Both the position numbers and the translations under genes were made by a program. Below the pieces are notes generated by a model. That model searched no databases, had not been told where the DNA came from, and saw only the letters and a list, made by a program, of their open reading frames with translations. Below, piece by piece: positions 5,809-54,665 of a stretch of 61,718 nucleotides of DNA. Each line of letters opens with the position of its first letter. Positions within the stretch are counted from its first letter, which is position 1. The DNA comes from Planctomycetota bacterium (GTDB taxonomy: Bacteria > Planctomycetota > J058): assembly GCA_023954375.1 (NCBI GenBank), contig JAMLIC010000006.1:210972-272689 (forward strand). Reading direction: 5' to 3'.

Positions 5809-5909
5809 CTCCGACCGCCCCCCCGCGGAGCCGACCCGGGCGCCCCGACGGTCCGGCGGCGGTCTCCAGGGGAGTTATCGGTCGGGGTGGGGGGGTGGCC
5901 GTAGCGCGG

Positions 5910-24228: not shown

Positions 24229-24286
24229 GCGCCCTCCTTGGGTGCGAACAGAAGGCTAACCTGAGGGTCCGACATCCCTGGCGCCC

Positions 24287-24712
24287 TCACAGGTCGAAGA
24301 TCAGCCGGGCGCGGACGACCCGGCCCCGTCGCGCGAGGGCGGCCTGGTGGTGGGTGACCGCCTTGACCGGCCGCGCGATCGGGTGGCGGGCGGGATCGAA
24401 GCGCTCGCCGTGCGCGGTCCCCTCGATGCGCGTCGCCTCGACGCGGGCCGGCGAGAACCTGGCGCAGAGGAAGCGCTCGACCTCGAACAGGTAGAGGAGC
24501 TCGTTGCCGAGCGCCACGAGGGTCGCCGGCGCGTCGATCCCGGTGACGCTGACCTCGCGCGCCTCGCGCTCGGCGACCGTCTCCGGCGCGTCCGTGAGCA
24601 GGGCCAGGAACGCGCGCGCGCAGGCGGCCACGGCGGCGCCCTCGTCGGGCGCCTCGACGTCGACGCCGAAGTCGCCCGTGTGGTCGAAGAAGCGGTACGA
24701 CGGCTCGGCCAC
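24287..24712 (-). CDS. archease (RtcB activator)
   Basis: FFDHTGDFGVDVEA signature. 141 aa, immediately upstream of rtcB. Confidence 0.8.
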   Translation of the reverse strand: MAEPSYRFFDHTGDFGVDVEAPDEGAAVAACARAFLALLTDAPETVAEREAREVSVTGIDAPATLVALGNELLYLFEVERFLCARFSPARVEATRIEGTAHGERFDPARHPIARPVKAVTHHQAALARRGRVVRARLIFDL

Positions 24713-24780
24713 GGCACCCCGGACGCGCGCGCGGGCGGCGCCTGTCTCCCCGCCTGATGGTACCCCCTAGAATGCACCCC

Positions 24781-25911
24781 ATGCAGGTGCGGGTCCTCAC
24801 GGGCGTGGCCGACGTCCCCGAGGCGGCGTGGGACCGCCTCGTGGGCGACGCGTCACCCTTCGTCGAGTGGGCCTACGTGCGCGCCTGCGAGGTCGACTCG
24901 GCCACGCCCGAGCACGGGGTCGAGCCGCGGCACGTGACCGTGTGGCGGGGCGGCGAGCTCGTCGGCGCGGCGCCGCTCTACCTCAAGCACGACGGGCGCG
25001 GCGAGTTCATCTACGACTTCGCCTGGGCCATGGCGGCGCGACGGGCGCGCCTGCCCTACCACCCCAAGCTCGTCTCCATGGCGCCGTTCGCGCCGTTCGA
25101 CGTGCCCCACCTCCTCGTCGCGCCGGGCGACCCCGACCCCGACGCCGTGCGCGCCGCGCTGGTGCAGGGCGTCGAGGACCTCGCCGAGCGCGAGGGCGCC
25201 CACGGCGTCCACTGGCTGTTCACGGGCGACGCGGAGGCGCAGGCGCTGGCGGGCCGCGGCTACGCGCGCCGGCGCACGCTCTCGCTCGTGTGGACCAACC
25301 CCGGCGAGGCCACGTTCGAGGGCTGGCTGGGGCGGCTGCGCAGCAAGGCGCGCGTGCGCACGCGGCGCGAGCTGCGGCGCCTCGACGAGGCCGGCGTCGC
25401 CATCGAGCGCGTCGAGGGCGACGCGGTCACCCCGGACGACGTCGACCTGCTCCGCCGCTACTACGAGGCGACGTGCGAGGCGCACGGGACCGGCAGCGAC
25501 TACCTCAAGCCCGGGACCTGGGACCTCCTCGGGCGCGCCTGGCGCCATCGCCTCGTCCTCTTCTTCGCCCGCGCGGGCGGCCGCCGCGTCGGCGGGTCGC
25601 TCCTCGTGCAGAAGGGCGCCGACCTCTACGGCCGCTACTGGGGCGCCGACGCCGCGCAGCCGTTCCTCTACTTCGCCCTGTGCTTCTACCGGCCGATCGC
25701 CCACGCCCTCGAGCGCGGCCTCCGGCGCGTGCACGCCGGCGCCGGCACGACCTTCCACAAGCACGCCCGCGGCTTCGACCCCGCGCTGATCACCTCGTGG
25801 CACCGCCTGCGCCACCCGGCCCTGCACGAGGCCATCGCCCGCGCGGCCGCGGCGGAGGCCGAGGAGGTCGAGCGCGCCGCCCACCTCCTCGGCCGACCAT
25901 CCCAGGCCTAA
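24781..25911 (+). CDS. GNAT-fold FemAB-like acyltransferase family protein (DUF482-like)
   Basis: 377-384 aa depending on start (ATG at 24757 or 24781), with the conserved HWLF...YWGA...FHKHARGF pattern. Divergent from archease. Confidence 0.5.
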   Translation: MQVRVLTGVADVPEAAWDRLVGDASPFVEWAYVRACEVDSATPEHGVEPRHVTVWRGGELVGAAPLYLKHDGRGEFIYDFAWAMAARRARLPYHPKLVSMAPFAPFDVPHLLVAPGDPDPDAVRAALVQGVEDLAEREGAHGVHWLFTGDAEAQALAGRGYARRRTLSLVWTNPGEATFEGWLGRLRSKARVRTRRELRRLDEAGVAIERVEGDAVTPDDVDLLRRYYEATCEAHGTGSDYLKPGTWDLLGRAWRHRLVLFFARAGGRRVGGSLLVQKGADLYGRYWGADAAQPFLYFALCFYRPIAHALERGLRRVHAGAGTTFHKHARGFDPALITSWHRLRHPALHEAIARAAAAEAEEVERAAHLLGRPSQA

Positions 25912-40663: not shown

Positions 40664-42067
40664 CTACGCGGCCTCGCTCACGGCGTCGAGCGCGGGCTCG
40701 GCCTTCTTCCGCGGGCGGCGGGCGCGCTTCGTCTTCACGCTGGCCGTCACGGGCGGCGCGTCCTCGCCCGCGGGCGCCTCCGGCGCCGGCGCCGGCTCGA
40801 CGGGGTTCAGCGCCGAGCGCACCTGGTCGCGTCCGTTGCGCTTGGCGGCGTAGAGGTGCTGGTCGGCCGCCTCGATGAACGCGCCGGCGTCCTTCATCGC
40901 GTCCGGGTCGAGCTCGGCCACGCCGAAGCTGGCCGTGACCGCGATCTCCGCCTCCCCCGCCTTCACCGGGGCCTGGCGGATCTTCTTACGCAGCCGCTCG
41001 GCCAGGGCCGCGGCGTCCTCGAGCGTGGTGTCCGGGGCGAGGATGATCAGCTCCTCGCCCCCGTAGCGGAACGCCTGGTCGTAGCCGCGGATCGCGCCGC
41101 GCACCCGCCGCGCCACCTCGGCCAGGACGGCGTCGCCGGCGACGTGGCCGTGGACGTCGTTGACGCGCTTGAAGTGGTCGACGTCGATGATGATCATCGA
41201 CAGCGGCGTCCCGAGCCGCCGCCGCTGCGCCATGAGCTGCTGCGCCATCTCCTGGAAGTGGCGCTTCGTGTAGAGCCCCGTCAGCCCGTCGACCACGGCG
41301 CGGTCGTAGAGGGCGGGCTTGCGGATCGCGAGCGCGATGTGCTTCGCCAGCCCCTCGAGCATGCGCGCCAGCTCGAGCGGGTCCGGCGCCGGGGTGCCCG
41401 CCGGCGGCGAGGCGAGGCGCACCTCGAGCGCGCCCATGACCTCGCCCTCGGCCACGAGCAGGGCGGCCGCGCGCAGGCCGCCGCGCGCCGGCTCGACCAC
41501 CGTGCGGCGCGCGTCGAGCGCGCGCCGCGCCTCGCGCGGCTCGAGCGCCAGGTCGCCCGGCGCGCTCACGCGCGTGCGCTCGCCCACGCGGTGCGCCACG
41601 GCGACGAGCGCGTCGCGCTCCGGCCCGTCGGCGAGGAAGATCACGATCTCGCGCGCGTCGAGGAGCCCGCCGAGCACGGCGAGCGCCCGCTCGAGGATCG
41701 GCTCGAGGCTCACGTCGTCGTTGGCGATCAGGGCCAGGTCGCGGATCGCCGAGAGCTGCTCGACCTGCCGCCGCAGCTGCGTGACCGTCTCGTGCTGCTG
41801 CTGCTCGCGCCGCTGGACGCGCCCCGAGTCGATCAGCGCGAACGCCCCGCCGCCCCGGCGCAGGTGGGCGAACGCCCGGCGCACGCGCGCCGCGTCGAGG
41901 GCGAAGGCGAAGGCGGTGATCGCCGTGGCCGCCCCGAGCGAGGCGAGCGCCGCCGTGACCGTGCGCCCGGCCACGTCGGGGGTCCAGCTGGCGTAGGTCG
42001 CCAGCCCCAGGAGCGCGACCGGGGCGGAGAGGGGGGCGAGGTGCTGGAGGCGAGGCCGGCGGAGCAT
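40664..42067 (-). CDS. membrane-bound diguanylate cyclase (TM, GAF-like and GGDEF domains)
   Basis: RYGGEE active-site motif, DGLTGLYTKRHF, and N-terminal TM helices. Confidence 0.85.
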   Translation of the reverse strand: MLRRPRLQHLAPLSAPVALLGLATYASWTPDVAGRTVTAALASLGAATAITAFAFALDAARVRRAFAHLRRGGGAFALIDSGRVQRREQQQHETVTQLRRQVEQLSAIRDLALIANDDVSLEPILERALAVLGGLLDAREIVIFLADGPERDALVAVAHRVGERTRVSAPGDLALEPREARRALDARRTVVEPARGGLRAAALLVAEGEVMGALEVRLASPPAGTPAPDPLELARMLEGLAKHIALAIRKPALYDRAVVDGLTGLYTKRHFQEMAQQLMAQRRRLGTPLSMIIIDVDHFKRVNDVHGHVAGDAVLAEVARRVRGAIRGYDQAFRYGGEELIILAPDTTLEDAAALAERLRKKIRQAPVKAGEAEIAVTASFGVAELDPDAMKDAGAFIEAADQHLYAAKRNGRDQVRSALNPVEPAPAPEAPAGEDAPPVTASVKTKRARRPRKKAEPALDAVSEAA

Positions 42068-42319
42068 GGCGAGGTCCCCTGTGCCCCTCTTCGGCTGAAG
42101 CGGCGCCGGACCTTGCGCCGGTGGCAGGGTCGACCGTGCGCCCGGGTCGACCGCCCTGGCATGCCACCCCGGCGGTTATCGGCCCGGGTGGAACTTACGC
42201 CGGGCACGGGCCGTGCACCGCCCCCCGCGCGAACAGCGGGGAAGGCCAGGAGCATCGGGCGTGATGCCAGGCGCGCGCAGCGGAGTTTCGGTGCGAGTTT
42301 CGGTGCGAAAGGAGCCCAC

Positions 42320-43154
42320 CTTGGGAGTCTTCGGAGTCGGCGCGGCGAGGATCGGCGTCGTGTGCCTCGCCGTCGCGGCGTTCGGCACGAGCGGCTGCTC
42401 GAGCCTGCGCCACAAGAGCAACGACGAGCTGTGGGCCGAGGGCGACGGCCACTTCAACCAGGGCCGCTACGGCGACGCCACCCCCTACTACGACGAGCTG
42501 ATCCGCCGCGACGAGGGCGGCACCCGCGCGCACCTCATGCGCGGCGTGGCCCGCGAGCGCACGGGCGACCACGGCGCCGCCCTCGAGGACTACGGCGCGG
42601 CCGGCAGCCGCGGCGAGGTCCGCGCGCTGTTCTACCGCGCCGACCTGAACCTGCGCCGCGGCGACCTCGCCTCGGCCGAGGTGGACCTGGGCGCCCTGCG
42701 CGACATGGGCCTCGGCGGGCGCGACACGGTCGTGCACCTGACGCTCCTGGGCACGCTGCGCCTCAAGCAGAAGCAGTACATGTTCGCCGCGCAGAACCTG
42801 GAGCGCGCCTGCGAGGCGTCGGCCTCCTACCGCGACCCCGGGATGATGCGGCACATCCGTGACGCGCACTACAACGCCGCGCAGGCCTACTACCACCTGG
42901 GCGACTTCGGCCGCGCCTACGACCACATGGTGCAGTTCGCCGGTGGCAGCCCGGGCGACGGGACGCGCACGTCGGAGTACCTCGACGGCCAGGACAGCTA
43001 CATGCTCGGCCTCCTCGCCTACCTCGCCGGCGACTTCGCGGCCGCCGACCACCACCTCGCCAACGCGGATCCGGACCTCGTGGCCCGGGCCGCCGACGTC
43101 CTCGACGACCCGTCTTTCGGCGCCGGCGCGCGCCGGGGAGGCAACCCCAAGTGA
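42320..43154 (+). CDS. TPR-repeat lipoprotein (first gene of the envelope-machine cluster)
   Basis: TTG start after an AAGGAG RBS. Lipobox FGTSGC. TPR-like helices. Confidence 0.5.
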
Positions 43155-44305
43155 AGCGGACCGCACTCACCACCGGCGGCGCGCTGGCGCTGCTCCTCTC
43201 CGCGCCCGGCGCCGCCTGGGCGCAGAGCCCGCCCCCCTTCGCCGACCGCGCCCCGGACCCGCGCGGCCAGCAGCAGCAGCGCGGTACGACCGCCGAGCTG
43301 GCGCCGCTGCCCAACTGGTCGATCAAGCAGGAGGTCCAGCGGCTCGACACGTCGATGCGCGAGTACAACTCGCTCATCAACTCGCTCTCGAGCGCCAGCG
43401 CCGAGCTCAAGGAGGAGCTGCAGCGCTACTCGCAGGACCCGCACAACGAGGTCCTGGCCTCCTCGCTCGACAACAAGATGGCCCACTACGCCAAGCGCGT
43501 CATGGCCGACTTCAACGGGATCATCGCCGACCAGGACGTGCTCTCGGCGAACTTCAACGACCTGCAGCGCAAGCTCGTCGTCTTCTCGCGGCACCTGGCC
43601 TCGCAGGCCGACGGCTTCCGCGGCAACCTCGACGGCTACCGCACCACGGCGCGCGACGTGGAGAAGCGGCTGACCGAGCTGGCCGTGCGGATCAAGGAGA
43701 ACCCCCCGGAGGACCCGAACGAGCTGCGGACCCTCAAGCGCGAGTTCTCGAACCAGTTCCGCCGCTACCAGCTCCAGATGCGCTACGTCAACGGCTACAG
43801 CCGCCGCTACCAGAGCTACCAGAACCTGCAGCGCAACGTCGAGCGCCTGGCGACCCTGTTCGTGACCCTGCACGAGAAGTTCAACGAGCTGATCGACAAC
43901 CTGCAGAACGAGCGGCAGTTCCTCCAGGACTCGGTGCGCCTGCAGGCCGACACGCTCAGGATCAAGCAGATGATGCGCGAGGGGATCGTCGGCTCGGAGC
44001 AGGCGATCGGCAACGTCGCCGACAAGCTGGCGACCCTCTACGAGAAGGTCGACGCGTTCGCGCAGGTGCAGGACCGGATCAGCACCGACCTCAACCGCTT
44101 CGTCGAGTCGCAGGGCGTGCTGACCGACATCATGGGCCGGATCGACAAGATCGGCCAGAGCGGCGGCCCGATCGGCGACATCGGCGCCGACATGGACAAG
44201 GCGATCGACGCCTTCTACGGGCGTCGCAGTGGCCTCGACCAGGGGCTGCTCGGCGACCAGGCGCAGGACGACATGATGGACTTCGGCCTGGGGGAGGACG
44301 AGTGA
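43151..44305 (+). CDS. secreted coiled-coil protein (Gln/Arg-rich)
   Basis: Signal peptide ALALLLSAPGAAWAQ. Long heptad-like helices. GTGA overlap with the upstream gene. Confidence 0.5.
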   Translation: MKRTALTTGGALALLLSAPGAAWAQSPPPFADRAPDPRGQQQQRGTTAELAPLPNWSIKQEVQRLDTSMREYNSLINSLSSASAELKEELQRYSQDPHNEVLASSLDNKMAHYAKRVMADFNGIIADQDVLSANFNDLQRKLVVFSRHLASQADGFRGNLDGYRTTARDVEKRLTELAVRIKENPPEDPNELRTLKREFSNQFRRYQLQMRYVNGYSRRYQSYQNLQRNVERLATLFVTLHEKFNELIDNLQNERQFLQDSVRLQADTLRIKQMMREGIVGSEQAIGNVADKLATLYEKVDAFAQVQDRISTDLNRFVESQGVLTDIMGRIDKIGQSGGPIGDIGADMDKAIDAFYGRRSGLDQGLLGDQAQDDMMDFGLGEDE

Positions 44306-45204
44306 TGAGCGACCACACCCTTCGTGCTCCCACCCTGACCCTGACCGCGCTCCTCCTCCTGGGCCCGGCCGCCCTGGCCCAGGAGCCGCTGCGGCCCAGC
44401 GACCCCCTGGCCGGCCCGCCCATCCGCGACATCGGCGGCTGGCTGGGCGAGGACGCGCCGCTGCCCGGCGCCCGGCCGGCGGCGCCCGCGCCGGCCGCGC
44501 CGCCGGCGCCCGCGGGCGGGGGCGCGGTCGGGGCCGAGGACCCGCTCGCCGCGCCCCCGGCCCCGGCGCCCGAGGACCCGGAGAAGGCCCGGCAGGAGGC
44601 CCGGCGCCGCGACCGGCAGATCAGCCGCAACTACCAGCAGGCGATCGAGATCTACGAGGACATGGACGCGCCCGACCACCAGATCGCGGCGCTCGACCGG
44701 CGGATCGCCAACAACGAGCGCCTGGTCGCCGACTACCGCCGCCGACTCGGCGAGGGCCAGCAGCAGCGGCGCAACATGCAGGTCGACCTGTTCAACCGCA
44801 CCTTCTTCCTCCGCCAGCAGCGCGAGCGCGGGCAGATCACCCAGGAGGTGTTCGACAAGCTCATCCGCCAGGAGGAGCGCAAGTACGAGGAGGACTCTGC
44901 CGGCCTGAAGGCGAACCTCGAGGCCTGGCACCGCGAGCTCAAGCAGGCCGAGGCGCGCCTCGAGTCGATGAAGGCGGAGCGGCGCATGCTCGAGGCGTCG
45001 CGGCCGCGGACGGCCGTGCGGCGCGGCCAGCAGCAGGGCGGCGCGCCCGTGCCGGCGCCCAAGCCGGGCGAGCGGCTGATCGGCACGCTCGAGGAGCGCC
45101 TGCGCCAGCTCGAGCGCTTCAACACGCGCAGCACCATGGAGGGGGTCCACCCCCGCGACATCGGCGTGGGCTCCGTCGAATCGGTCCAGCTGAAGAACGA
45201 CTAA
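44305..45204 (+). CDS. secreted protein with a Pro/Ala-rich linker and a coiled-coil C-terminus
   Basis: Signal peptide LTLTALLLLGPAALAQE. Overlaps the previous stop by 1 nt. Confidence 0.5.
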   Translation: MSDHTLRAPTLTLTALLLLGPAALAQEPLRPSDPLAGPPIRDIGGWLGEDAPLPGARPAAPAPAAPPAPAGGGAVGAEDPLAAPPAPAPEDPEKARQEARRRDRQISRNYQQAIEIYEDMDAPDHQIAALDRRIANNERLVADYRRRLGEGQQQRRNMQVDLFNRTFFLRQQRERGQITQEVFDKLIRQEERKYEEDSAGLKANLEAWHRELKQAEARLESMKAERRMLEASRPRTAVRRGQQQGGAPVPAPKPGERLIGTLEERLRQLERFNTRSTMEGVHPRDIGVGSVESVQLKND

Positions 45205-45434
45205 CGACCGTGGGCGGGAGCGCCGTCCGGGCCTGCCTGCCGTCCTGCTCCCGGACGTGCGGGCGGGCGACTCCACCCTGGACGGGCTCGCGCGCGCGGT
45301 GAAGGGGGGGCACCGAGGTGGCGCGGCGCCGGAGACGTCCGGCGCCGCGCCCGCCCGGGCGGGCGCGGCCCGCCGGGAGACCAAGACCACGGCCCGGCGG
45401 GCAGAGACGCCGGCCCGCGACGAGGTGAAGCGCC

Positions 45435-46019
45435 TTGATCTACCGGTTCCTCCAGGAAGGCGGCGTCTGGATGATCCCGATCCTCGGGGTCTCGGTGGTC
45501 GCCACGACGTTCGTCCTCGAGCGCGCCTGGTTCTGGTTCGTGCTCTGGCTGCGGCGCGACCTGCGCCTGCGCCGGCGGCTGCTGCGCGGCGAGGTCCCGT
45601 CCCCCGGGACGCGCACCGGCGACCCGCACGCGCTGGTGCTCCTCGACCTCGCCGTCCACCCCGCCGACCCCGACCTCGCCGTCGACCGCGCGCGCATGCT
45701 CGTGCGCGACAGCCGCAACCACCTCAAGGTCCTGGCGATCTGCTCCGGCCTCGGCTCGGCGCTGGGCCTCTTCGGCACGGTCGTCGGCATGAGCGACTCG
45801 TTCCGCGGCGTCGGCCTCTCGAACCCGGGCGCGATCGTCACCGGCCTGCAGACGGCGCTGAACACCACGGTGCTCGGCCTGATCGTCTACCTGACGGCCT
45901 ACGTGGCCCACGCGCTCTTCGCGCAGATGAGCACGAACCTCAGCCAGGACCTGGAGGAGGACCTCAACGAGGCGCGGCGCGCGATCGACGCGCGGCGCCG
46001 GGGGAGGGTGGCGGCGTGA
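45435..46019 (+). CDS. MotA/TolQ/ExbB-family proton channel
   Basis: Three TM helices with the TolQ-like segment GLGSALGLFGTVVGM. Confidence 0.75.
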   Translation: MIYRFLQEGGVWMIPILGVSVVATTFVLERAWFWFVLWLRRDLRLRRRLLRGEVPSPGTRTGDPHALVLLDLAVHPADPDLAVDRARMLVRDSRNHLKVLAICSGLGSALGLFGTVVGMSDSFRGVGLSNPGAIVTGLQTALNTTVLGLIVYLTAYVAHALFAQMSTNLSQDLEEDLNEARRAIDARRRGRVAA

Positions 46020-46459
46020 CCGACCCTCGCGACTCCCGCGCGATCCGCCTCGAGCCGGCGACCGACGAGGAGCCGGCGATGCTCATGACCTCCATGATCG
46101 ACGTGATCTTCATCGTGCTCGCGTTCTTCGTGTGCGTGAGCGAGGTGAAGAAGGGGCAGCTCGCGGTGGACGTGCCCGAGGTGCCGAGCGCCGACGCGTC
46201 CCCGGCCCCGAGCAGCCAGGAGCCGATCGTCGTCGAGGTGACGGGGGACGACCGCGTGTTCGTGTGCGGCGAGTCGGCGCGGACCGACGACGAGCTCACG
46301 CGCCTGATCGCCTACCAGGTCGAGCGGCTGGGCAAGGACGCGGCGGTGCACCTGTCGGGCGACCGGCAGGCCAAGAACGGGACCATGATGCGCGTGGTCA
46401 GCCACCTGTCGCGGGCCGGGCTCAAGCGCATCGAGTTCGCCGTGCAGGCGGGAGGCTAG
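46016..46459 (+). CDS. ExbD/TolR-family protein
   Basis: MIDVIFIVLAFFV TM helix plus a periplasmic domain. GTG at 46016 overlaps the MotA stop; the alternative ATG is at 46078. Confidence 0.7.
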   Translation: MTDPRDSRAIRLEPATDEEPAMLMTSMIDVIFIVLAFFVCVSEVKKGQLAVDVPEVPSADASPAPSSQEPIVVEVTGDDRVFVCGESARTDDELTRLIAYQVERLGKDAAVHLSGDRQAKNGTMMRVVSHLSRAGLKRIEFAVQAGG

Positions 46460-46461
46460 CG

Positions 46462-46628
46462 TGGTGCGCGACCGTTCGCCGGTGGAGACCGTCCTCACCT
46501 ACGCCACGTTCATGGCGCTGTCGCTGGCGCTGCACATCGTGGTGATCCTCGGCAACCGCCCGCTCGACCGGGCGCAGGCCGACCAGAGCCGGGCCGGGCA
46601 GGCCCAGGAGGCGGAGCTCGCCAAGTGA
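46462..46628 (+). CDS. 55-aa single-TM mini-protein between ExbD and the TonB-like gene
   Basis: GTG start. TM helix TVLTYATFMALSLALHIVVILG. The next gene overlaps its stop as GTGA. Confidence 0.25.
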
Positions 46629-47965
46629 GCGTGACCCGCGACAACGACCCCGTCGCGTACACGCTGCGGCTCGCCGTCTGCGTGACCGCCGCGATCGCCG
46701 TGCACCTGCTGGCGGTCTTCTCCTCCAGCCAGGAGGAGGAGGCCAAGGCGGAGCAGCAGCGGATCGCCGTCGTCCTCAAGGAGACGATGACCAAGGTCAA
46801 GGAGGAGATGGAGAAGCTCCTCCAGGAGGCGCAGGCCGAGCCGCCGCCGCCCGAGCCGGAGCCCGAGCCGGAGGAGCCCGAGCCGGAGGAGCCCGAGCCG
46901 CAGCAGGCCGAGCCGCCGCCGCCCGAGCCGCCCCCGCCGGCGCCGACCGCCCCCGAGCCCATGCCCGAGGCGCCGCAGGACCTCGCGCTGGCCGACGCGG
47001 ACGTGAGCGTGCTCGAGCTCGAGCCGCCGCCGCGCCCGCGTCGGCCCGAGCCGCTGCCGCAGGTCGAGCCCGTGCTCGAGCCGCCGAAGCCGGAGCCGCC
47101 GAAGCCGGAGCCGCCGAAGCCGGAGCCGCCGAAGCCGGAGCCGCCGAAGCCGGAGCCGCCGAAGCCGGAGCCGGTCCGTCCCGAGCCGAGGCCGGAGCCG
47201 GTCCGGCAGCCGCCGCCGCCCGAGCCGGTCCGTCCCGAGCCGAGGCCCGAGCCGGTCCGTCAGCCGCCGCCGCCCGAGCCGGTCCGTCCCGAGCCGAGGC
47301 CCGAGCCGGTCCGTCAGCCGCCGCCGCCGCCCGAGCCGGTCCGTACGCCGGCGCCGCCGGTGCCGCCCGAGATCGGCTCGGAGACGGTCGCCCAGCGCGA
47401 CGCGCGCCTGCACCAGACCATGCGCGAGCTGAGCGACTTCAACGAGTTCGCCACGACGTCGCGCGACGAGGTCAAGGGCAAGATCCCGGCGATCCTCTTC
47501 ACCAACGAGGACGAGGCCGAGTGGATGGCGCTGATCGCCTACTTCGACCTCCTGCCGATCGCCTACGCCAAGAGCGACCCGAGCTACTACGTCACGATCG
47601 ACGTCGCCCGCCGGCAGATGAACCACACCCGCGACTTCGAGTTCCTGCAGCAGCGCTACGGGCGCAACGGCATGCTCGTGCGCCAGCTCGGCACCATGCC
47701 GCAGTTCGTGGCCGCCGCGCGCGCGATCATGGCGCAGTTCTCGATCGCCCCCCACGACCTCACGATCCAGTTCCTCCTGCCGCGCCCGTTCGCGGCCTAC
47801 CTGAACTGGAAGGCGCTCAAGACCTGCCACGAGCTGCGCCTCGACCCGGCGACGGTGAAGGCGTGTCGCGGGCGCCTCGTCCGCGAGGGGACGAAGTGGG
47901 TGTGGCGGGTCGACGACCTGCTGCTCGAGGACGGGCGGACAACCCGCGTGGGGAGGGGCGGATGA
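46625..47965 (+). CDS. TolA/TonB-like membrane protein: N-terminal TM, long Pro-rich periplasmic spacer, and a C-terminal ~200-aa domain unrelated to TonB_C
   Basis: TM helix LAVCVTAAIAVHLLAVF. (PPKPE)x6 and (PVRPEPRPEPVRQPPPPE)x3 repeats. C-terminal domain of unknown family. Confidence 0.6.
   Translation: MSVTRDNDPVAYTLRLAVCVTAAIAVHLLAVFSSSQEEEAKAEQQRIAVVLKETMTKVKEEMEKLLQEAQAEPPPPEPEPEPEEPEPEEPEPQQAEPPPPEPPPPAPTAPEPMPEAPQDLALADADVSVLELEPPPRPRRPEPLPQVEPVLEPPKPEPPKPEPPKPEPPKPEPPKPEPPKPEPVRPEPRPEPVRQPPPPEPVRPEPRPEPVRQPPPPEPVRPEPRPEPVRQPPPPPEPVRTPAPPVPPEIGSETVAQRDARLHQTMRELSDFNEFATTSRDEVKGKIPAILFTNEDEAEWMALIAYFDLLPIAYAKSDPSYYVTIDVARRQMNHTRDFEFLQQRYGRNGMLVRQLGTMPQFVAAARAIMAQFSIAPHDLTIQFLLPRPFAAYLNWKALKTCHELRLDPATVKACRGRLVREGTKWVWRVDDLLLEDGRTTRVGRGG
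47081..47340 (+). repeat. coding tandem repeats: six 15-bp PPKPE units then three ~54-bp units
   Basis: Direct perfect nucleotide repeats (ccgccgaagccggag x6). Confidence 0.85.
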
Positions 47966-48092
47966 CCGTGGAGCGCCGGGAGCGACCCTTGCCCAGCCCG
48001 CAGGGCTCAAGTACCTTCCCCTGCACGCGTTGGGCTCACGCGTGCGTTCGGGGCGCGTTCGGGCGCGCCCGCCACCCTGGCCTGGAGGGCGA

Positions 48093-48888
48093 GATGACCT
48101 CGCGTCGCAGGACGCCTCGGTGCCTCGTGGTCGGCGCGCTCGCCGCGCTGGCCCTGCCCGCCGCGGCCGCCCCGGCCCTCGCGCAGGGCGAGGCGCCGCG
48201 CGGGACCGACGGCCACCTGGCCAAGGGCGACTACTTCTTCAAGGCGGGCTACTACCTCAAGGCGAGCGAGCACTACCGCCTGGCGCTCCTCGAGGACCCG
48301 GCCAGCCCCGGCAAGAAGCTCGCCTTCGGCCACGCGCTGTTCGCGATCGGCAACTACAGCTACGCGAGCTACGCGCTGCGCCGCGGCGTCGCGCAGCTCG
48401 ACGCGAGCGAGCCGCTCCGCCCGCAGCTCAAGGGACTCTTCCCCAGCGAGCGGGCGTTCACCCAGGCCCTGCGTGACCTGAAGCGCTACGTCACCTACAG
48501 CCCGCGCGACCCGGCGGGGCTCACCGTCCTCGGCTACGTGCTGTTCACGATCGAGGGCGAGGAGCGGCGCTGCCAGGACATGTTCAAGTACCTGAAGCGC
48601 CTCGACCCCAACGACCCCTTCGCCGACTACTTCCTGGCGCAGATCCGCCGCAAGGGGATCCCCGACGGCGACGACCCTGGCCCGCAGGCTGCATTGCCCG
48701 ACGTCGGCTCGGTCGACGAGCCGGACCCGGAGCCGGCGCCGCGGCCCGTCGCCGCGCCGCCGCCTCCGCCGCCCCCTCCGCCCCCGCCCCCGACGCCCGC
48801 CCTGCGCGAGGTGCTCGGCGAGCCCGAGCGCGCGCGCGAGCGCGCGGAGGGCGAGTGGCCCATGCCCGTGCCGGCCCCGAGCCGCTGA
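48093..48888 (+). CDS. secreted TPR-like protein with a C-terminal poly-Pro tail
   Basis: Signal peptide ALAALALPAAAAPALAQ. TPR-like helices. PPPPPPPPPPPP near the C-terminus. Confidence 0.5.
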
Positions 48889-48905
48889 GGAGAGAGACGC
48901 CCGCC

Positions 48906-49502
48906 ATGTGGATCGTGCGAAACACGCTGCGCGCCACGCTGAGCCTCCGCGGCCTCGGGGTGGCGATCCCGTCGGGTCAGGAGTTCGACCTCGACGGGCT
49001 CGGCCGCGACCGCGCCGAGGCGAGCAACCAGGTGCAGGTCGCCTTCGAGGAGGGCTACCTGGAGAACGTCTACAAGGCGCCCCGCGAGGGCGGCATCACC
49101 CACACGAGCGTGGGGGTCGCCATGCCCATGGGGCGCGGCGTGTCGGGCGAGGAGCTCGACGCGTTCAAGCGCAGCTTCATGAGCGAGCTGCGCGAGCAGC
49201 TCCCGCAGCTGGCCAACGTGGCCAACGCCTCGCACATCGAGCAGATGCGCCAGGCGATCTCGCAGGACGTCCAGGCCCTCGTGGGCGAGTTCAAGCTCAT
49301 GCGCGACCGCTTCGAGTTTGCCAAGGGCCGCGTCCGGGAGGACCCGACCCTCTCCGACGCCGAGGTCAAGGCCCGGCTGGCGTTCCTCGAGGAGCAGGAG
49401 CGCGAGTTGCTGCGCAACTTCGAGACGGTCGGGCGACGGATCGAGCAGGAGCAGGAGGACGGCGACGTCATGGGCAAGGCCGACCTGCTCTCGAACCTCT
49501 AA
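48906..49502 (+). CDS. hypothetical cytoplasmic protein (198 aa)
   Basis: ATG at 48906. Charged helical composition. Confidence 0.4.
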   Translation: MWIVRNTLRATLSLRGLGVAIPSGQEFDLDGLGRDRAEASNQVQVAFEEGYLENVYKAPREGGITHTSVGVAMPMGRGVSGEELDAFKRSFMSELREQLPQLANVANASHIEQMRQAISQDVQALVGEFKLMRDRFEFAKGRVREDPTLSDAEVKARLAFLEEQERELLRNFETVGRRIEQEQEDGDVMGKADLLSNL

Positions 49503-49532
49503 CCCCGCGGGGACGAACGGAGTCACCCAGAC

Positions 49533-50663
49533 ATGGCCAAGGCAGTCGACATCGGCACCTGCTTCATCGTGGGGGCCCGCCTCGAGCAGGGCAAGGAGGT
49601 GTTCCAGATCGAGCGGGACGCCTTCTTCTCCATGCCGCGCGAGGACTTCGCCGAGGAGATGCTCCACGACGCGGGCGCCAAGTTCGTCATCCGCGGCAAC
49701 GAGCTCTACGTCGTCGGCGAGGACGCGCTCAAGTACTGCATGATCACCGGCAAGCAGGAGTTCTACCGCCGGCCCATGCAGAAGGGCGTCCTCAACCCGG
49801 GCGAGGAGGAGGCGATCCCGCTGCTCGAGCGCCTGATCGAGGGCATCATCGGCAAGCCCGAGCACCCGGGCGAGGTGATCGCCGCCACGATCCCCGCCGC
49901 GCCGCTCGACGCCAACCTCGACGTGACCTTCCACAAGATCGTCGTCGAGCGCTTCCTGAGGAAGCTCGGCTACGACGTGCGGATCCTCAACGAGGCGCTG
50001 GCGATCATCTACGCCGAGTGCCCGCAGGTCGAGGACAACGGCACGAAGGCGCCGTTCTCGGGCGTGGGCGTCTCCTTCGGCGCCGGCATGACGAACCTCG
50101 TCGTCTCGTGGCGCGCCAAGAAGCTGTTCGAGATCTCGGTCGCGCGCGGCGGCGACTGGATCGACCAGAGCGTCTCCAAGGTGCGCAACGTCCCCGTGGG
50201 GAAGGTGACGCACGAGAAGGAGAAGAACCTCGACCTGCGCCGCGTCGACCCGCGCAACGCCCTGCACCTGGGCCTCGAGATCTACTACGACGAGCTGATC
50301 CGGCACGTCCTGCGCGAGTTCCGGGCGCACTTCAAGACGAACCAGACGACGGTCACGAGCCCGCTCGACGTGGTCGTCGCCGGCGGGACCTCGTCGGTGC
50401 CCGGGTTCATCGACCTGTTCAAGCGCATCCTCGAGGAGGAGGGCGCGCCGATCCCGGTCAACGACGTGCGCATGGCCAAGGACCCGCTGCGCACGGTCGC
50501 CAAGGGCGCGCTGGTCGCCGCGGTCTCCATGGAGAAGAAGAAGAAGTCGGACAAGCCGGGCGCGCCGGCGGCGCCGCCGGCCCAGGCGGCGCAGGCCGCG
50601 CCGGCGCCGGCCGCGCCGCCGACGCCCAGCGCGGACGTGATCGACATCGAGGCCGGGGTCTAG
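49533..50663 (+). CDS. actin-like ATPase (ASKHA superfamily; MreB/ParM/actin-type)
   Basis: Phosphate-1 AVDIGTCFIV, phosphate-2 GVSFGAGMTNLVV, adenosine VVAGGTSSVPGF, connect-2 DPLRTVAKGAL. Ala/Pro-rich C-terminal tail. Confidence 0.7.
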   Translation: MAKAVDIGTCFIVGARLEQGKEVFQIERDAFFSMPREDFAEEMLHDAGAKFVIRGNELYVVGEDALKYCMITGKQEFYRRPMQKGVLNPGEEEAIPLLERLIEGIIGKPEHPGEVIAATIPAAPLDANLDVTFHKIVVERFLRKLGYDVRILNEALAIIYAECPQVEDNGTKAPFSGVGVSFGAGMTNLVVSWRAKKLFEISVARGGDWIDQSVSKVRNVPVGKVTHEKEKNLDLRRVDPRNALHLGLEIYYDELIRHVLREFRAHFKTNQTTVTSPLDVVVAGGTSSVPGFIDLFKRILEEEGAPIPVNDVRMAKDPLRTVAKGALVAAVSMEKKKKSDKPGAPAAPPAQAAQAAPAPAAPPTPSADVIDIEAGV

Positions 50664-50694
50664 GCCTCCCAGGGCGCGGGGCGGAAGGGGCTGC

Positions 50695-52755
50695 ATGAGC
50701 GCGAACGGCGTGGAGCGCGAGGACGGCGGGCTCGAGGTCATCATCGAGCCCGACGTCGTCCCCCGCGGGACCGTCGACCTGCGGGCGATCATCGGCGGCG
50801 CGCGGGCGGACGGCCGCCCGCGCGAGACGCACACGGCGCGCGGCCGGCGCGAGGCGGTCCTCGCGCAGGTCGCGGCCGCGCACGTCGCGCCGCCGCCGGC
50901 GCTCGTCGCCGCCGCGCCCGTCGTCGCCGCCGCCGTCGCGCCGGCCGTCGCCGCCGAGCCGGAGCCGGAGCCGGCCGAGCCGGAGCCGGCCGAGCCGGCC
51001 CCCGAGGAGGGCCTCCTGGCCGAGGCCCTCCCCGACCTCCCGCCCGAGCCCGCGTCGCCGACGCTCATGGCCCTCGAGGCGGCCGCCAAGGCGCCGATCC
51101 CGCCGCGCCCGGACGCGGCCCTGGCGGCCGACGCCCCCGACCCCCACCCGGAGCCCGAGGCGCCGCCGGTCAGCCTGGGCGAGGTCTCGGCGTTCAGCAC
51201 GCTCGCCAAGCTCCTGGCGCAGCTCCTGGCCCTGCTCCTGTGCCTGATCGCCCTCTACCTGCACCTCATGGGCCTGGCGCCCTGGCAGGAGCAGCGCGGG
51301 GCGGAGCCCGCCGCGATGGCCCCGGCCGCGCCGAGCGGCGAGGCCCCGCGGGTCGACACGGTCCCCGTCACGCCGCCGCCGGCGGCCGAGCCCGAGCCGT
51401 CGCCCGAGCCGGCGCCCGAGCCCGAGCCGGCGCCTCCCGCCGACCCCGCGCCGGAGCCCGAGGTCGAGGCGGCCGCGCCGCCGGCGCCCTCGGCGCCCTC
51501 GCTCGAGGACCTGCGCGCGCTCCTGGCCGAGGCCGAGACCGGCGCCGAGCTGGGCGTCGAGGAGGACGCGCCCGGGCTCCTCGCGCGGATCGAGGGCCTG
51601 CGGGCCCGGGCGGCGCGGCTGATCGACAGGGGCGAGCTCGACGAGGCGGCCGAGGTCCTGCGCGAGCTGATCGGCCTGGCCCCGGAGGACGGCGACGCCT
51701 ACTTCCGCCTGGGCTACGTCCACCACCGCAAGGGCGACCTGGACGAGGCGGCCGCCCGCTACCGCGGCGCCGCCGAGCGCTCGCCGCGCGACCCGCGGCC
51801 CCTGAACAACCTGGGCCTCATCCAGACCGGGCGCGGCGAGCGCGACGCCGCGAAGGCGACCTACGCCAGGGCGCTCGACCTCGCGCCCGACGACCCGGAC
51901 GTGCTGTCGAACCTCGCCGCCCTGCTCGAGGCCAACGCGCCGACCCAGGCCCATCCGCTCTACGAGAAGGCGCTCGAGCGCGACCCGCGCCACGCGCCCG
52001 CCCGCCTGGGCCGCGCCCGCGTGCGCGCCGCGGTCGGCGACCGCCAGGGCGCCCGCGCCGACTACCAGGCGCTGGTCGACCAGGGCGGCCCGCACGCGCA
52101 CCGCGCGCTCGACGGCCTGGGCGTCCTGGCCCGGATCGAGGGCGATGCGCGCGCCGCCGCCGCCCTCCACCGCCAGGCGCTCGAGCGCACGCCCGCCTTC
52201 GCCGAGGCGCGCGTGAACCTCGGGGTCGCGCTCCTCGACCTCGGGCGCGACGACGAGGCCCGCAAGGAGCTCGACGATGCGGTCAAGGCGCTGCCGAGGA
52301 GCCCGCGCGCGTGGCAGGCGCTGGGCGTGGCGCGCTCGCGCCTGGGCATGCTCTACGAGGCCAAGGAGGCCTACGAGGCGGCGATCAAGCTCGACGGCGA
52401 CGACTGGGCCACCCGCTTCGACTACGCGCTCTGCGCCGAGCAGTTCGGCAACATCCTCTTCGCCATGCGCGAGTACGAGCGCTCGATCGCGCTCAACCCG
52501 ACCGCCTGGCAGCCCTACGCCAACCTCGCTCGCCTCTACGTGCGCGGCGACCAGCGGCAGAAGGCGATCGAGCTCCTCACGCGCGGGCTCGAGGTGATGC
52601 CCCGTCAGCCCGACCTGACCTACGCGCTGGCGCACGCGCTGGCGCTCGAGGGGCGCGACGCCGAGGCGCGCGCCCGGCTGCGCCAGTTCCTGGCCGTGGC
52701 GCCGGCGAGCGACCCGCGGGTCGAGGTCGTGCGGCGCGGGCTGGGCGGGTCGTGA
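50695..52755 (+). CDS. TM protein with a Pro/Ala/Glu-rich linker and multiple C-terminal TPR repeats
   Basis: TM helix LLAQLLALLLCLIALYLHLMGL. At least six TPR-like units in the C-terminal half. Confidence 0.6.
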   Translation: MSANGVEREDGGLEVIIEPDVVPRGTVDLRAIIGGARADGRPRETHTARGRREAVLAQVAAAHVAPPPALVAAAPVVAAAVAPAVAAEPEPEPAEPEPAEPAPEEGLLAEALPDLPPEPASPTLMALEAAAKAPIPPRPDAALAADAPDPHPEPEAPPVSLGEVSAFSTLAKLLAQLLALLLCLIALYLHLMGLAPWQEQRGAEPAAMAPAAPSGEAPRVDTVPVTPPPAAEPEPSPEPAPEPEPAPPADPAPEPEVEAAAPPAPSAPSLEDLRALLAEAETGAELGVEEDAPGLLARIEGLRARAARLIDRGELDEAAEVLRELIGLAPEDGDAYFRLGYVHHRKGDLDEAAARYRGAAERSPRDPRPLNNLGLIQTGRGERDAAKATYARALDLAPDDPDVLSNLAALLEANAPTQAHPLYEKALERDPRHAPARLGRARVRAAVGDRQGARADYQALVDQGGPHAHRALDGLGVLARIEGDARAAAALHRQALERTPAFAEARVNLGVALLDLGRDDEARKELDDAVKALPRSPRAWQALGVARSRLGMLYEAKEAYEAAIKLDGDDWATRFDYALCAEQFGNILFAMREYERSIALNPTAWQPYANLARLYVRGDQRQKAIELLTRGLEVMPRQPDLTYALAHALALEGRDAEARARLRQFLAVAPASDPRVEVVRRGLGGS

Positions 52756-52758
52756 GGC

Positions 52759-52833
52759 TCACCACGGAGGACACGGAGGACACGGAGGAAGACGCTCTCC
52801 GTGTCCTCCGTGTCCTCCGTGGTGAATGGTGAC
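52759..52833. terminator. ~28-bp perfect-stem palindrome containing three ggaggacac direct repeats per arm; candidate intrinsic terminator/attenuator between the cluster and the histidine kinase gene
   Basis: ccacggaggacacggaggacacggagga / tccgtgtcctccgtgtcctccgtgg. No U-tract follows it. Confidence 0.45.
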
Positions 52834-52853: not shown

Positions 52854-54665
52854 ATGACGATCGGCCACATCCCGCCGCCCGGCCGGGCGCAGGCGAGCCT
52901 GCTCGCCCGCGTCGTCGCGCTCATCGGCCTGGCCTTCTTCGTCATCGAGCTGGCCGTCCTCGGCGTCTTCACCGCCGGCTACTGGGTGTGGCTCACCGGG
53001 CACCGCGAACAGGCGCTCGGCGCCCACGCGTCGCGCGTGCGCGAGCACGTGCGCCAGGCGCTGCTCGAGCGCGAGAACCCGCACGCGGGCGTCGACGTGG
53101 ACGCGGAGCTCCTGCAGGCCCTGCGCTCGGGGCAGGGACAGGCGCCGGGTGAGGGGAGCCCGCTGCCGGCCAACCTCGAGCCCGACGCGCCGATCGACGC
53201 CTGGGTGCTCACGCGCTCGGGCGAGGTGCTGCGCTTCGCCGGCGGACAGCTCACGGCCGCCGACTCGGCCGCGTGGCCGGGCGCGCGCTGGCCGGAGGGC
53301 GTCCGGCGCCGGATCGAGGAGCTGTTCCTCGGCCGCGACGTCGCCGCCTTCTTCCAGGTCTCGCTCCCGGTCGACGCCCTCGTGCCGCGGACCATGGCGC
53401 GGGCCGAGCCGATCGTCACCGGCGGCCAGGGGCAGCCCGACGCCGTCCTCTGGCTCGACGCGTCGCTCGCCGACCTCCACCGGCAGGTCGCCACCTACGG
53501 CCTCGTCGCCTTCGGCAGCGGGGCCGTGGCGCTGTTCATCACGGCCATGGTCGTCCTGCACTACCTGCGCCGCGCGCTCCTCCTGCCGCTCTCGCGCCTG
53601 ATCGCGGCCGACAACGCCGCGCGGCGCGGCGACGAGGAGCACGCCGTGATCGACGAGGGGGACATCCCGGACGACGAGGTGGGCGCGATCATGCGCAGCC
53701 GCAACCACCTGTTCCTCGCCATGGTGAAGGGCCGCCGCGACCTCGACGAGAAGAACGCGATCCTCGCCCGGCAGGGCGAGGAGCTGCGCGCCTGGGGCGA
53801 GCAGCTCGAGCGGCTCGTCGAGCAGAAGACGTCGGCGCTCCTGCGCGCGAAGGACCGGCTGCACCGGACGGAGAAGCTGGCGGCGCTCGGGCGCCTCGCC
53901 GCGAACGTGGCCCACGAGATCAACAACCCGCTGGCGACCATCGCCGGCTACGCCGAGGAGGCGCGCGACGCGCTCGACGGCGCCGACCCCGAGCTGGCGC
54001 AGGCGCTGAAGACGATCGAGGACCAGGCGTTCCGCTGCAAGGAGATCCTCAAGCGCCTGCTGGGCCTGGCGCGCAGCGACCAGCTCGAGCTCGAGGAGGT
54101 GGCCCTGCGCCGGCTCGCCCGCGAGTCGGTCCACCTGGCCGAGGCGGCCGCCCGGCGGCGCGGGGTCACGGTGAGGGTCGACCCGGCGCCGTCCGGCGAG
54201 GACCCGGACGGGCCGACGGTGCGCTCGGACGCGGCCTCGCTCCAGCAGGCGATCCTGAACCTCGTCGAGAACGCGATCGACGCCGCCGCCGAGCGCAAGG
54301 GCGCGGCCCCCTGGGTGCGCGTGGCCGTGCGCGAGGCCGGCGCGGAGGTGCGCCTCGTCGTCACCGACAGCGGGCCCGGGGTGCCGCCGGCCCTGCGGGC
54401 GCGGGTGTTCGACCCCTTCTACACGACCAAGCCCGTCGGCCGCGGCACGGGGCTCGGCCTGGCGATCAGCCAGTCGCTCGTCGAGCGCCTCGGCGGGCGG
54501 GTCACGCTCGAGGAGGACCCGTCCGGCGGGGCGGCCTTCGTGATCCACCTGCCGCGGCGGCCGCGCGAGTCGGGGCGGGCGCCGCGGGCCGCGGGTGACG
54601 CCAGCGACCTGCTCGAGGCGCAGCTGCGCGTGGCCGGCGCGGGCGCCGCGGATCCGGACCTGTGA
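52854..54665 (+). CDS. sensor histidine kinase (two TM helices, HisKA, HATPase_c)
   Basis: H-box HEINNPLATI. N/G1/G2 boxes NLVENAID, DSGPGV, GTGLGLAIS. Confidence 0.85.
   Translation: MTIGHIPPPGRAQASLLARVVALIGLAFFVIELAVLGVFTAGYWVWLTGHREQALGAHASRVREHVRQALLERENPHAGVDVDAELLQALRSGQGQAPGEGSPLPANLEPDAPIDAWVLTRSGEVLRFAGGQLTAADSAAWPGARWPEGVRRRIEELFLGRDVAAFFQVSLPVDALVPRTMARAEPIVTGGQGQPDAVLWLDASLADLHRQVATYGLVAFGSGAVALFITAMVVLHYLRRALLLPLSRLIAADNAARRGDEEHAVIDEGDIPDDEVGAIMRSRNHLFLAMVKGRRDLDEKNAILARQGEELRAWGEQLERLVEQKTSALLRAKDRLHRTEKLAALGRLAANVAHEINNPLATIAGYAEEARDALDGADPELAQALKTIEDQAFRCKEILKRLLGLARSDQLELEEVALRRLARESVHLAEAAARRRGVTVRVDPAPSGEDPDGPTVRSDAASLQQAILNLVENAIDAAAERKGAAPWVRVAVREAGAEVRLVVTDSGPGVPPALRARVFDPFYTTKPVGRGTGLGLAISQSLVERLGGRVTLEEDPSGGAAFVIHLPRRPRESGRAPRAAGDASDLLEAQLRVAGAGAADPDL

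Follow-up and report, generated by a model that had tools for sequence, protein, structure and literature searches.

What kind of system is encoded by a compact run of eleven genes in which an actin-family ATPase stands beside the parts of a Tol/Exb-type proton motor? The question is raised by a stretch of 61,718 nucleotides from Planctomycetota bacterium (assembly GCA_023954375.1, contig JAMLIC010000006.1, positions 210,972 to 272,689 of the forward strand), which was analysed at its full length and is called the window here. The genes, named g1 to g11, are co-directional and span positions 42264-52755 of the window. Our analysis points, tentatively and with not quite an even chance of being right, to an operon for a Tol-like trans-envelope complex that would be driven by the proton-motive force and coupled to a cytoplasmic filament of volactin, an actin homologue. 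To our knowledge, no operon has so far been known to join a Tol/TonB-type motor to a protein of the actin family.

Because the G+C content of the window is about 75%, raw lists of open reading frames (ORFs) are noisy, and for this reason the genes were called from frame plots of the G+C content at third codon positions (GC3), together with conserved orthologs. All coding signal at 42.2-52.8 kb lies on the plus strand and resolves into g1-g11, with start/stop overlaps of 4 nt at g1/g2, g2/g3, g4/g5 and g6/g7, and a gap of 1 nt between g5 and g6. Domain content was assessed with Pfam, NCBIfam equivalog and PADLOC profiles, and transmembrane (TM) segments were called by a simple hydropathy scan, which gives three for g4, one each for g5, g6 and g7, and N-terminal hydrophobic segments for g1 and g8. 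Pfam holds no family for g3, g6 and g7; its matches to g2 and g9 stay below threshold and are of the coiled-coil type. A first, sequence-only reading of this DNA had described eleven co-directional, overlapping genes, and the frame plots, translations, 4-nt overlaps and orthologs bear this out; its list of components, comprising tetratricopeptide repeat (TPR), coiled-coil, MotA/TolQ, ExbD/TolR and TM-TPR proteins, agrees with the translations and with Pfam. Domain scans of the cluster and of the other scanned window ORFs also agree with its claim that no TolB, Pal, TonB-dependent receptor or flagellar gene is present, and neither a TolB beta-propeller nor an OmpA-type lipoprotein Pal was found among g1-g13 or those ORFs. 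Scans for Rfam families, tRNA genes, sigma-70 promoters and intrinsic terminators gave no match. Orthologs were searched with tblastn and iterated profile hidden Markov models of every window protein against fetched loci (numbered with the prefix L), and further loci came from an independent look-up and from a metagenome scan seeded with g2.

The actin-family protein, g10, aligns with its residues 1-330 to the whole of the PF25216 profile (positions 1-321 of 321), and the phosphate-1 (D6-x-G8-T9), phosphate-2 (S181-x-G-x-G-M-x-N188) and adenosine (G284-G-T286) motifs are invariant in bacterial and archaeal members. It is a member of the volactin family with intact nucleotide-binding motifs, which makes the 'actin-like ATPase' of the sequence-only reading more precise. 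A profile search found no sequence relative of g10 in the PDB. Its homologs at 46-97% identity all come from metagenome-assembled genomes (MAGs) labelled Planctomycetota, from 31 species-level genomes, and the next ones, only 36-40% identical, belong to Halobacteria, Archaeoglobaceae and scattered other bacteria. In addition, g9 is 100% identical to a protein of a "Planctomycetes bacterium" MAG (locus tag M9894). The earlier framing of the cluster within Myxococcota had to be given up, all close relatives being Planctomycetota MAGs. The sole volactin studied so far, VolA (HVO_2015) of Haloferax volcanii, forms dynamic filaments with tips that touch the membrane, and has a role in shape transition (PMC10869688). 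Two actins known from the phylum were considered as identities for g10 and rejected: saltatorellin of Saltatorellus is MamK-like (66-78% similar to MamK), and g10 reaches 27.4 bits against the NCBIfam MamK cutoff of 400, while the Uabimicrobium protein is placed with the actins of Asgard archaea and eukaryotes.

The motor is represented by g4 and g5. The g4 motifs GL.GTV.G in TM2 and L..AL.TT..GL in TM3 are invariant over 10 orthologs, and the TM Asp of g5 (..MIDVIFI.. in the window, M(I/L/T)DV(I/M)FI overall) is present in 11/11 sequences, those of the window and 10 orthologs. Since these residues are kept in both proteins, selection maintains the stator as a functional proton channel, and g4 and g5 are members of the ExbB and ExbD stator families with their proton-path residues intact. 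The NCBIfam equivalog models for TolQ, TolR, ExbB, ExbD and YbgF all score far under cutoff, g4 reaching 37.2 against 221 for TolQ (TIGR02796) and 25.3 against 206 for ExbB (TIGR02797).

An SxxxH (SHLS-type) motif in the TM anchor defines the anchors of TonB and TolA. In the window this motif is carried by the small peptide g6, and the TM helix of g7 has only its His. The g6 gene is restricted to the window's subclade; in deeper lineages the g7 ortholog itself starts with the SxxxH helix (L083:7006-8322, L100:10620-11696), and nine deep g7 orthologs have an N-terminal TM helix with Ser-x3-His. Because the SxxxH helix elsewhere belongs to the g7 ortholog, g6 looks like a duplicated anchor, or an anchor split off the spacer protein. 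Behind the anchor, g7 carries the repeats that the sequence-only reading had pointed out, (PPKPE)6 and an 18-residue unit in three copies, and both are genuine tandem repeats in the DNA. The former is a 15-nt unit at 47078-47173 with 100% match, for which Tandem Repeats Finder (TRF) gives periods of 30 and 45, and the latter a period-54 array of 3.6 copies at 47150-47344 with 92% match (TRF). The tolA_full model (TIGR02794) matches the g7 ortholog of L083 (67.7 against 59.45) over profile positions 3-246 of 362 only, which cover the anchor and helical domain, and does not match the g7 of the window. The C-terminal domain of about 190 residues has no match in Pfam, NCBIfam or the PDB, either by sequence profile or by fold. 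The Pfam scan found no TonB_C domain (PF03544) in g7, as had been claimed from the sequence alone. These features support the prediction that g7 is a TolA/TonB-like protein with a non-TonB C-terminal domain.

In 27 of 31 loci from Planctomycetota (L001-L031), the gene directly 5' of volactin is that of g9. Its AlphaFold2 model has an N-terminal domain with a predicted local distance difference test score of about 90, followed by helices. Beyond the sub-threshold coiled-coil-type matches in Pfam, it has no family match in Pfam, NCBIfam or PADLOC, and no PDB match by sequence profile or structure. The family is small: at 50% identity it counts 147 representatives in a set of 1.84 billion proteins; the g9 domain is N-terminal in nearly all of them, and no Pfam domain was found as a fusion partner in the ten members checked (nine longer, one of typical length). 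The archaeal loci show an arrangement of their own. In 37 loci of Halobacteria and Archaeoglobaceae (within L034-L080), a conserved protein of 220-330 residues, which has some four TM helices and ends in an acidic tail, is encoded on the same strand directly 5' of volactin (for example L034:8340-9095 and L060:8940-9875); it could be a membrane anchor of volactin. This protein was considered as a homolog of g9 and rejected, with an hhalign probability of 0.2%.

On the other side of volactin, g11 is composed of an N-terminal peptide, LEVIIEPDVVPRGTVDLR, a linker, the TM segment, a Pro-rich linker and a TPR domain of about 400 residues. Another cytoplasmic motif, P(I/L/M)PPRPA, is conserved in the window's subclade (orthologs in L003, L005, L007-L010 and L093), where it follows LxAAA at residues ~120-140 (window positions 50695-51230), and could be a peptide ligand.

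Among relatives the cluster is kept as a unit, a point on which the sequence-only reading had made its case depend. The order g1-g2-g3-g4-g5-(g6)-g7-g8-g9-g10-g11-g12 is the same in all seven fully flanked, region-spanning genomes (L007, L010, L011, L012, L014, L016 and L029), and nine shorter contigs agree with it. In the same-order genomes volactin identity goes down to 55%, and that of g1, g3 and g7 down to 24-40%. The nearest species genome, Planctomycetota bacterium ACE_PLA31, has a volactin 97% identical and the same gene order. One metagenome contig (L083) holds the full set with a kinase and a sigma-54 response regulator, another (L093) holds g2-g12, and neither these two nor several partial contigs depart from that order. 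In a neighbour-joining volactin tree, built with no bootstrap, the loci with the full cluster fall into a single clade.

Four exported proteins belong to this conserved set. Twelve orthologs share the lipobox Cys of the lipoprotein g1. A 12-nt tandem repeat, GAGTTTCGGTGC, of 2.2 copies at 42283-42308 marks the 5' end of the gene; because it sits between alternative start codons, the start of g1 is uncertain (42264, 42303 or 42321). The database matches of g2 are weak and of the SMC/Rad50 coiled-coil type only, and its identity of 37-64% over 8 orthologs, with 50 invariant columns, makes it second to volactin in conservation within the cluster. Orthologs of g3 are found in every full cluster, and g8 is kept in full and intermediate clusters; the start of g8 at 48094 is supported, since its orthologs open with signal peptides.

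The conserved block extends to the regulators that flank it. Outside the stretch from the GGDEF gene to the kinase, genes are shared with the closest relative only, besides weak, paralog-level matches to the flanking Ser/Thr kinase. Because the GGDEF gene, g1-g11 and the histidine kinase g12 recur between outer flanks that vary, selection is taken to act on these genes as a unit, with the GGDEF gene divergent from the rest. The GGDEF ortholog lies divergently 5' of g1 in L011, L029, L083, L092, L095 and L097, an association that is frequent but not universal, and the g12 ortholog is directly 3' of g11 in L001, L003, L005, L007, L009-L014, L016, L029, L083 and L093. In both L083 and L100, a kinase and a sigma-54 response regulator are paired next to the cluster. 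The sigma-54-type box of the window at 42202 is not above chance by itself; perfect TGGCAC-N5-TTGC boxes precede the first cluster gene at L095:681 and L100:5990, and one with a single mismatch at L099:8048. Between g11 and g12 stands a perfect hairpin, each arm of which holds three 9-nt repeats (CACGGAGGA; TRF 52763-52789 and 52797-52821), with no U tract. It has no second copy in the window, and none was found in 107 fetched loci, including L001, where volactin is 97% identical.

Table. Features of the cluster and its flanks, in window coordinates (aa, amino acids; dG, folding free energy).
Feature	Position	Strand	Basis or description
GGDEF diguanylate cyclase, divergent	40664-42067	-	N-terminal TM segments, GAF-like region; Pfam GGDEF 3.1e-42
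Weak sigma-54-type -24/-12 box, lead only	42202-42216	+	GGGCAC-N5-GTGC, 5' of g1; 2 mismatches
g1, TPR lipoprotein	42264 (or 42303/42321)-43154	+	TPR_16 7.6e-14; lipobox ...FGTSGC
g2, secreted 384-aa helical/coiled-coil protein	43151-44305	+	Signal peptide ...AAWA/Q from translation
g3, secreted protein, Ala/Pro-rich linker and coiled coil	44302-45204	+	Signal peptide ..ALA/Q from translation
g4, ExbB/TolQ/MotA-family proton channel, 3 TM	45435-46019	+	PF01618 55.8 bits vs cutoff 22.9
g5, ExbD/TolR-family stator subunit	46016-46459	+	PF02472 63.3 bits vs cutoff 25.4
g6, single-TM peptide, 55 aa	46461-46628	+	SLALH, TonB/TolA-type SxxxH motif
g7, TolA/TonB-class protein	46625-47965	+	N-terminal TM with His, charged helix, Pro-rich repeats, ~190-aa C-terminal domain
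g8, secreted TPR protein, poly-Pro tail	48094-48888	+	Signal peptide; weak TPR matches
g9, 198-aa cytoplasmic protein, putative volactin partner	48906-49502	+	~58-aa N-domain, helical region, C-terminal tail ...ADLLSNL
g10, volactin-family actin-fold ATPase	49533-50663	+	PF25216 238 bits vs 35, E 2.5e-70
g11, bitopic membrane TPR protein	50695-52755	+	TPR families to 3.8e-36; TM residues 177-195
Perfect hairpin, 30-bp stem	52759-52825	+	Between g11 and g12; dG -69.8 kcal/mol, z -7.4
g12, membrane histidine kinase	52854-54665	+	HisKA + HATPase_c

How might these products work together? In the complex that we propose, the g4/g5 stator would energise g7, and the spacer of g7 would cross the periplasm to a TPR/coiled-coil scaffold at the outer envelope. 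The g11 protein would span the inner membrane, its N-terminal cytoplasmic peptide holding the complex on volactin filaments together with g9 as adaptor, and the filament would position or brace the complex. The adjacent kinase, sigma-54 and cyclic di-GMP (c-di-GMP) regulators would switch the system on, and its output would be a localised remodelling of the envelope, as in a change of cell shape or a division-type constriction, rather than nutrient uptake. Tol-Pal functions in outer-membrane constriction. Remodelling for shape or division is in our view the most likely output, because the transducer is TolA-like, because the sole known role of volactin is in shape transition, with filament tips at the membrane, because there is no adhesin or outer-membrane barrel in the cluster, and because Planctomycetota are without FtsZ (PMC11032199). 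A bolder proposal is that volactin filaments tied through g9 and g11 to a proton-driven Tol-like motor would make up a new class of machine for FtsZ-independent division, shape change or locomotion in early-branching Planctomycetota, with volactin and g9 as an ancient module shared with Archaea by transfer or descent; this we think unlikely as it stands.

Several points weigh against a volactin-coupled motor complex. The physical assembly of the products into a single envelope-spanning machine is inferred, and the window's cluster encodes no component of the outer membrane. Because the C-terminal domain of g7 and g9 have no recognisable fold relatives, the partners proposed for them are guesses, and all carriers are uncultured organisms, which bears on what can be said of cell shape, motility and mode of division. 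In another clade of Planctomycetota (L015, L017-L023 and L081), a longer g9 of about 272 residues and volactin stand by themselves among unrelated neighbours, and three distant metagenome variants (L099-L101), with a g2 34-37% identical, have no volactin. Two of the three, L099 and L101, have no detected ExbD gene, and an ExbB-like segment, degenerate in L101, lies in-frame just before the TolA-like protein (L099:11605-13527, L101:6088-7650), an arrangement that may reflect decay of the motor or a fusion. Part of the envelope module may thus work without a motor, and the separate occurrence of the two halves may mean that their coupling is optional or only regulatory. That the actin gene would be an obligatory part of the system finds no support, with volactin and g9 alone in the one clade and the distant envelope module devoid of volactin.

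The same variants are informative about g9 and g11. Besides a kinase, a sigma-54 regulator and a TPR gene, L099-L101 hold g1, g2, g3, g7, g8, the N-domain of g9 and g11, with g4 and g5 in L100 only. A gene of the Phenol_MetA_deg family, of the outer-membrane barrel type, follows g11 in this last contig (L100:14503-15498) and is the sole outer-membrane candidate seen. In all three variants g9 is reduced to 97 residues, the N-domain only, and its helical C-terminus and ..ADLLSNL tail are lost. Every volactin-linked cluster keeps the N-terminal motif of g11, whereas the motif is truncated in the variants without volactin, where (L/F)E(I/V)I(I/L)EPDVVPRGTVDLR is reduced to PFEI(I/V)F and the PDVVPRGTVDLR part is gone. 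Because the g9 N-domain and g11 stay where volactin is absent, both proteins appear to belong with both halves of the cluster, and because their motif loss (the g9 C-terminus and the g11 N-peptide) tracks the loss of volactin, they are candidates for the link between filament and envelope. Taken together, these comparisons point to g9 and g11 as connecting the filament and the envelope module. Sister loci L025, L028 and L030 present a further arrangement, TPR-g9-volactin(-g11), with no motor.

Could the cluster instead hold two independent neighbours by descent, a Tol-like envelope-integrity system (g1-g8) and a volactin cytoskeleton module (g9-g11), with no physical link between them? The modules are indeed found apart, as g9-volactin alone, as TPR-g9-volactin(-g11) without motor and as the envelope module without volactin, and the full-cluster holders being one clade, their shared order is possibly in part inherited. 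However, the g9 N-domain and g11 accompany the envelope genes even without volactin, so that the split does not fall between g8 and g9, the motif loss in both proteins follows that of volactin, and the order survives to 24-40% identity in g1, g3 and g7 despite replaced outer flanks. We regard such a neighbourhood by descent alone as possible but on the unlikely side. A different coupling of motor and filament would be that of a gliding or amoeboid surface-motility machine in the style of the Agl-Glt focal adhesions, with the TolQR-type motor pushing TonB-like/TPR transducers along an actin-family track. The parts list is similar in kind to that of Agl-Glt (PMC11761067), regulation through c-di-GMP and sigma-54 is characteristic of motility switches, and gliding or amoeboid movement has been described in relatives of this phylum. 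Against this stand the absence of any Glt, Agl or Nfs model at cutoff, the presence of one TolR-like gene rather than two, a cluster without outer-membrane barrels, adhesin, MglA/MglB, FHA or ZnR-GYF domains, and a g7 C-terminal domain that is not TonB-like by sequence and has no fold match; moreover, the moving planctomycetes that have been described use other actins, a MamK-like saltatorellin or an Asgard-like actin. Altogether, a motility machine seems to us decidedly improbable.

An energised uptake or export system of the TonB kind, acting through an unlinked outer-membrane channel and with volactin unrelated to transport, has in its favour the classical layout of ExbB-ExbD followed by a protein of TonB architecture, and the barrel gene after g11 in L100. 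Only one variant has this gene, neither a TonB_C domain nor a TonB-dependent receptor nor a substrate-binding protein was found, and three exported coiled-coil/TPR scaffold proteins and a cytoskeletal pair are foreign to uptake systems, which leaves transport very improbable. The locus is a conserved candidate for two questions, how planctomycetes without FtsZ divide and take shape, and how bacterial actins attach to the envelope. The locus adds a bacterial branch to the recently named archaeal volactin family, together with a small unannotated family, g9, and a putative membrane linker, g11, that bears conserved short peptides, and it extends the re-use of Tol-like motors with entirely new periplasmic partners beyond Proteobacteria and Myxococcota.

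Three other genes of the window were noted in passing. The gene for the RNA ligase RtcB (21160-24255, minus strand) is interrupted by an intein (Intein_splicing match, residues 160-652). A single ORF at 3373-5874 (minus strand) joins a MurC-like Mur ligase to MurB (FAD_binding_4 + MurB_C), and a FemAB-like gene lies at 24598-25911; because of the MurC-like/MurB fusion and the FemAB-like gene, peptidoglycan synthesis genes are counted as present in the window.

How does the cluster compare with known systems? No description of such a cluster was found in the searchable literature, nor any paper connecting volactin with either Planctomycetota or a Tol/Exb motor, which accords with the earlier proposal of a candidate new system. 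Anti-phage defence of the Zorya-like type was considered and rejected, with no PADLOC match for g4, g5, g7, g9 and g10, and only generic coiled-coil/TPR matches. The likeness to Tol-Pal (TolQ-TolR-TolA-TolB-Pal-CpoB) lies in the ExbB/TolQ- and ExbD/TolR-family genes followed by a protein with SxxxH anchor, spacer and terminal domain, and in the presence of TPR proteins and a lipoprotein in the operon. However, the cluster is without TolB and an OmpA-type Pal, its lipoprotein g1 being TPR only; the spacer of the window's g7 is Pro-rich, its C-terminal domain is unrelated by sequence to domain III of TolA, and coiled-coil proteins and the actin-family module are added. With TonB-ExbB-ExbD it shares the exbB-exbD-tonB-like order, the ExbD Asp, the SxxxH anchor and a Pro-rich periplasmic spacer, but it has neither TonB_C nor a TonB-dependent receptor, and the C-terminal domain of about 190 residues is without PDB relatives.

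In Agl-Glt of Myxococcus xanthus, a Tol-type motor is combined with an actin homologue and a coiled-coil adaptor in the cytoplasm, with TM proteins whose long periplasmic spacers are disordered, and with TPR proteins of the periplasm and a TPR lipoprotein (PMC11761067). The parts list of the cluster resembles that of Agl-Glt/Nfs in its logic, with homology limited to the generic motor and TPR folds. Whether it might be the known glt/agl/nfs set had been raised as a test by the sequence-only reading, and the NCBIfam models answer in the negative, with no Glt, Agl or Nfs model scoring at or above cutoff; the sole match, that of the g11 TPR region to GltE (NF033758), is sub-threshold (69 against 225 bits). 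No second TolR-like gene of the AglQ/AglS type was found besides the one ExbD gene, and no FHA or ZnR-GYF domain and no barrel in the cluster. The actin of the cluster is a volactin encoded within the operon, whereas that of Agl-Glt is an MreB encoded elsewhere, and MglA/AglZ, the GltA/B/H/K barrels and the FHA or GYF domains have no counterpart in the cluster, which moreover belongs to a different phylum.

As for the filament, g10 belongs over its full length to the same Pfam family as the volactin of Haloferax volcanii, with 36-40% identity to archaeal members and the nucleotide motifs kept. It differs from archaeal volactin in being bacterial, preceded by g9 and placed inside a Tol-like operon, whereas archaeal volA is preceded by a multi-TM protein. 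Saltatorellin and the Uabimicrobium actin-like protein are likewise actin-family proteins of early-branching Planctomycetota, with a proposed part in shape change, but their families differ from that of g10. The cluster is best read as an energised trans-envelope system of the Tol/TonB/Agl kind, distinguished from these by several proteins without a detectable family and by an actin homologue encoded within the operon.

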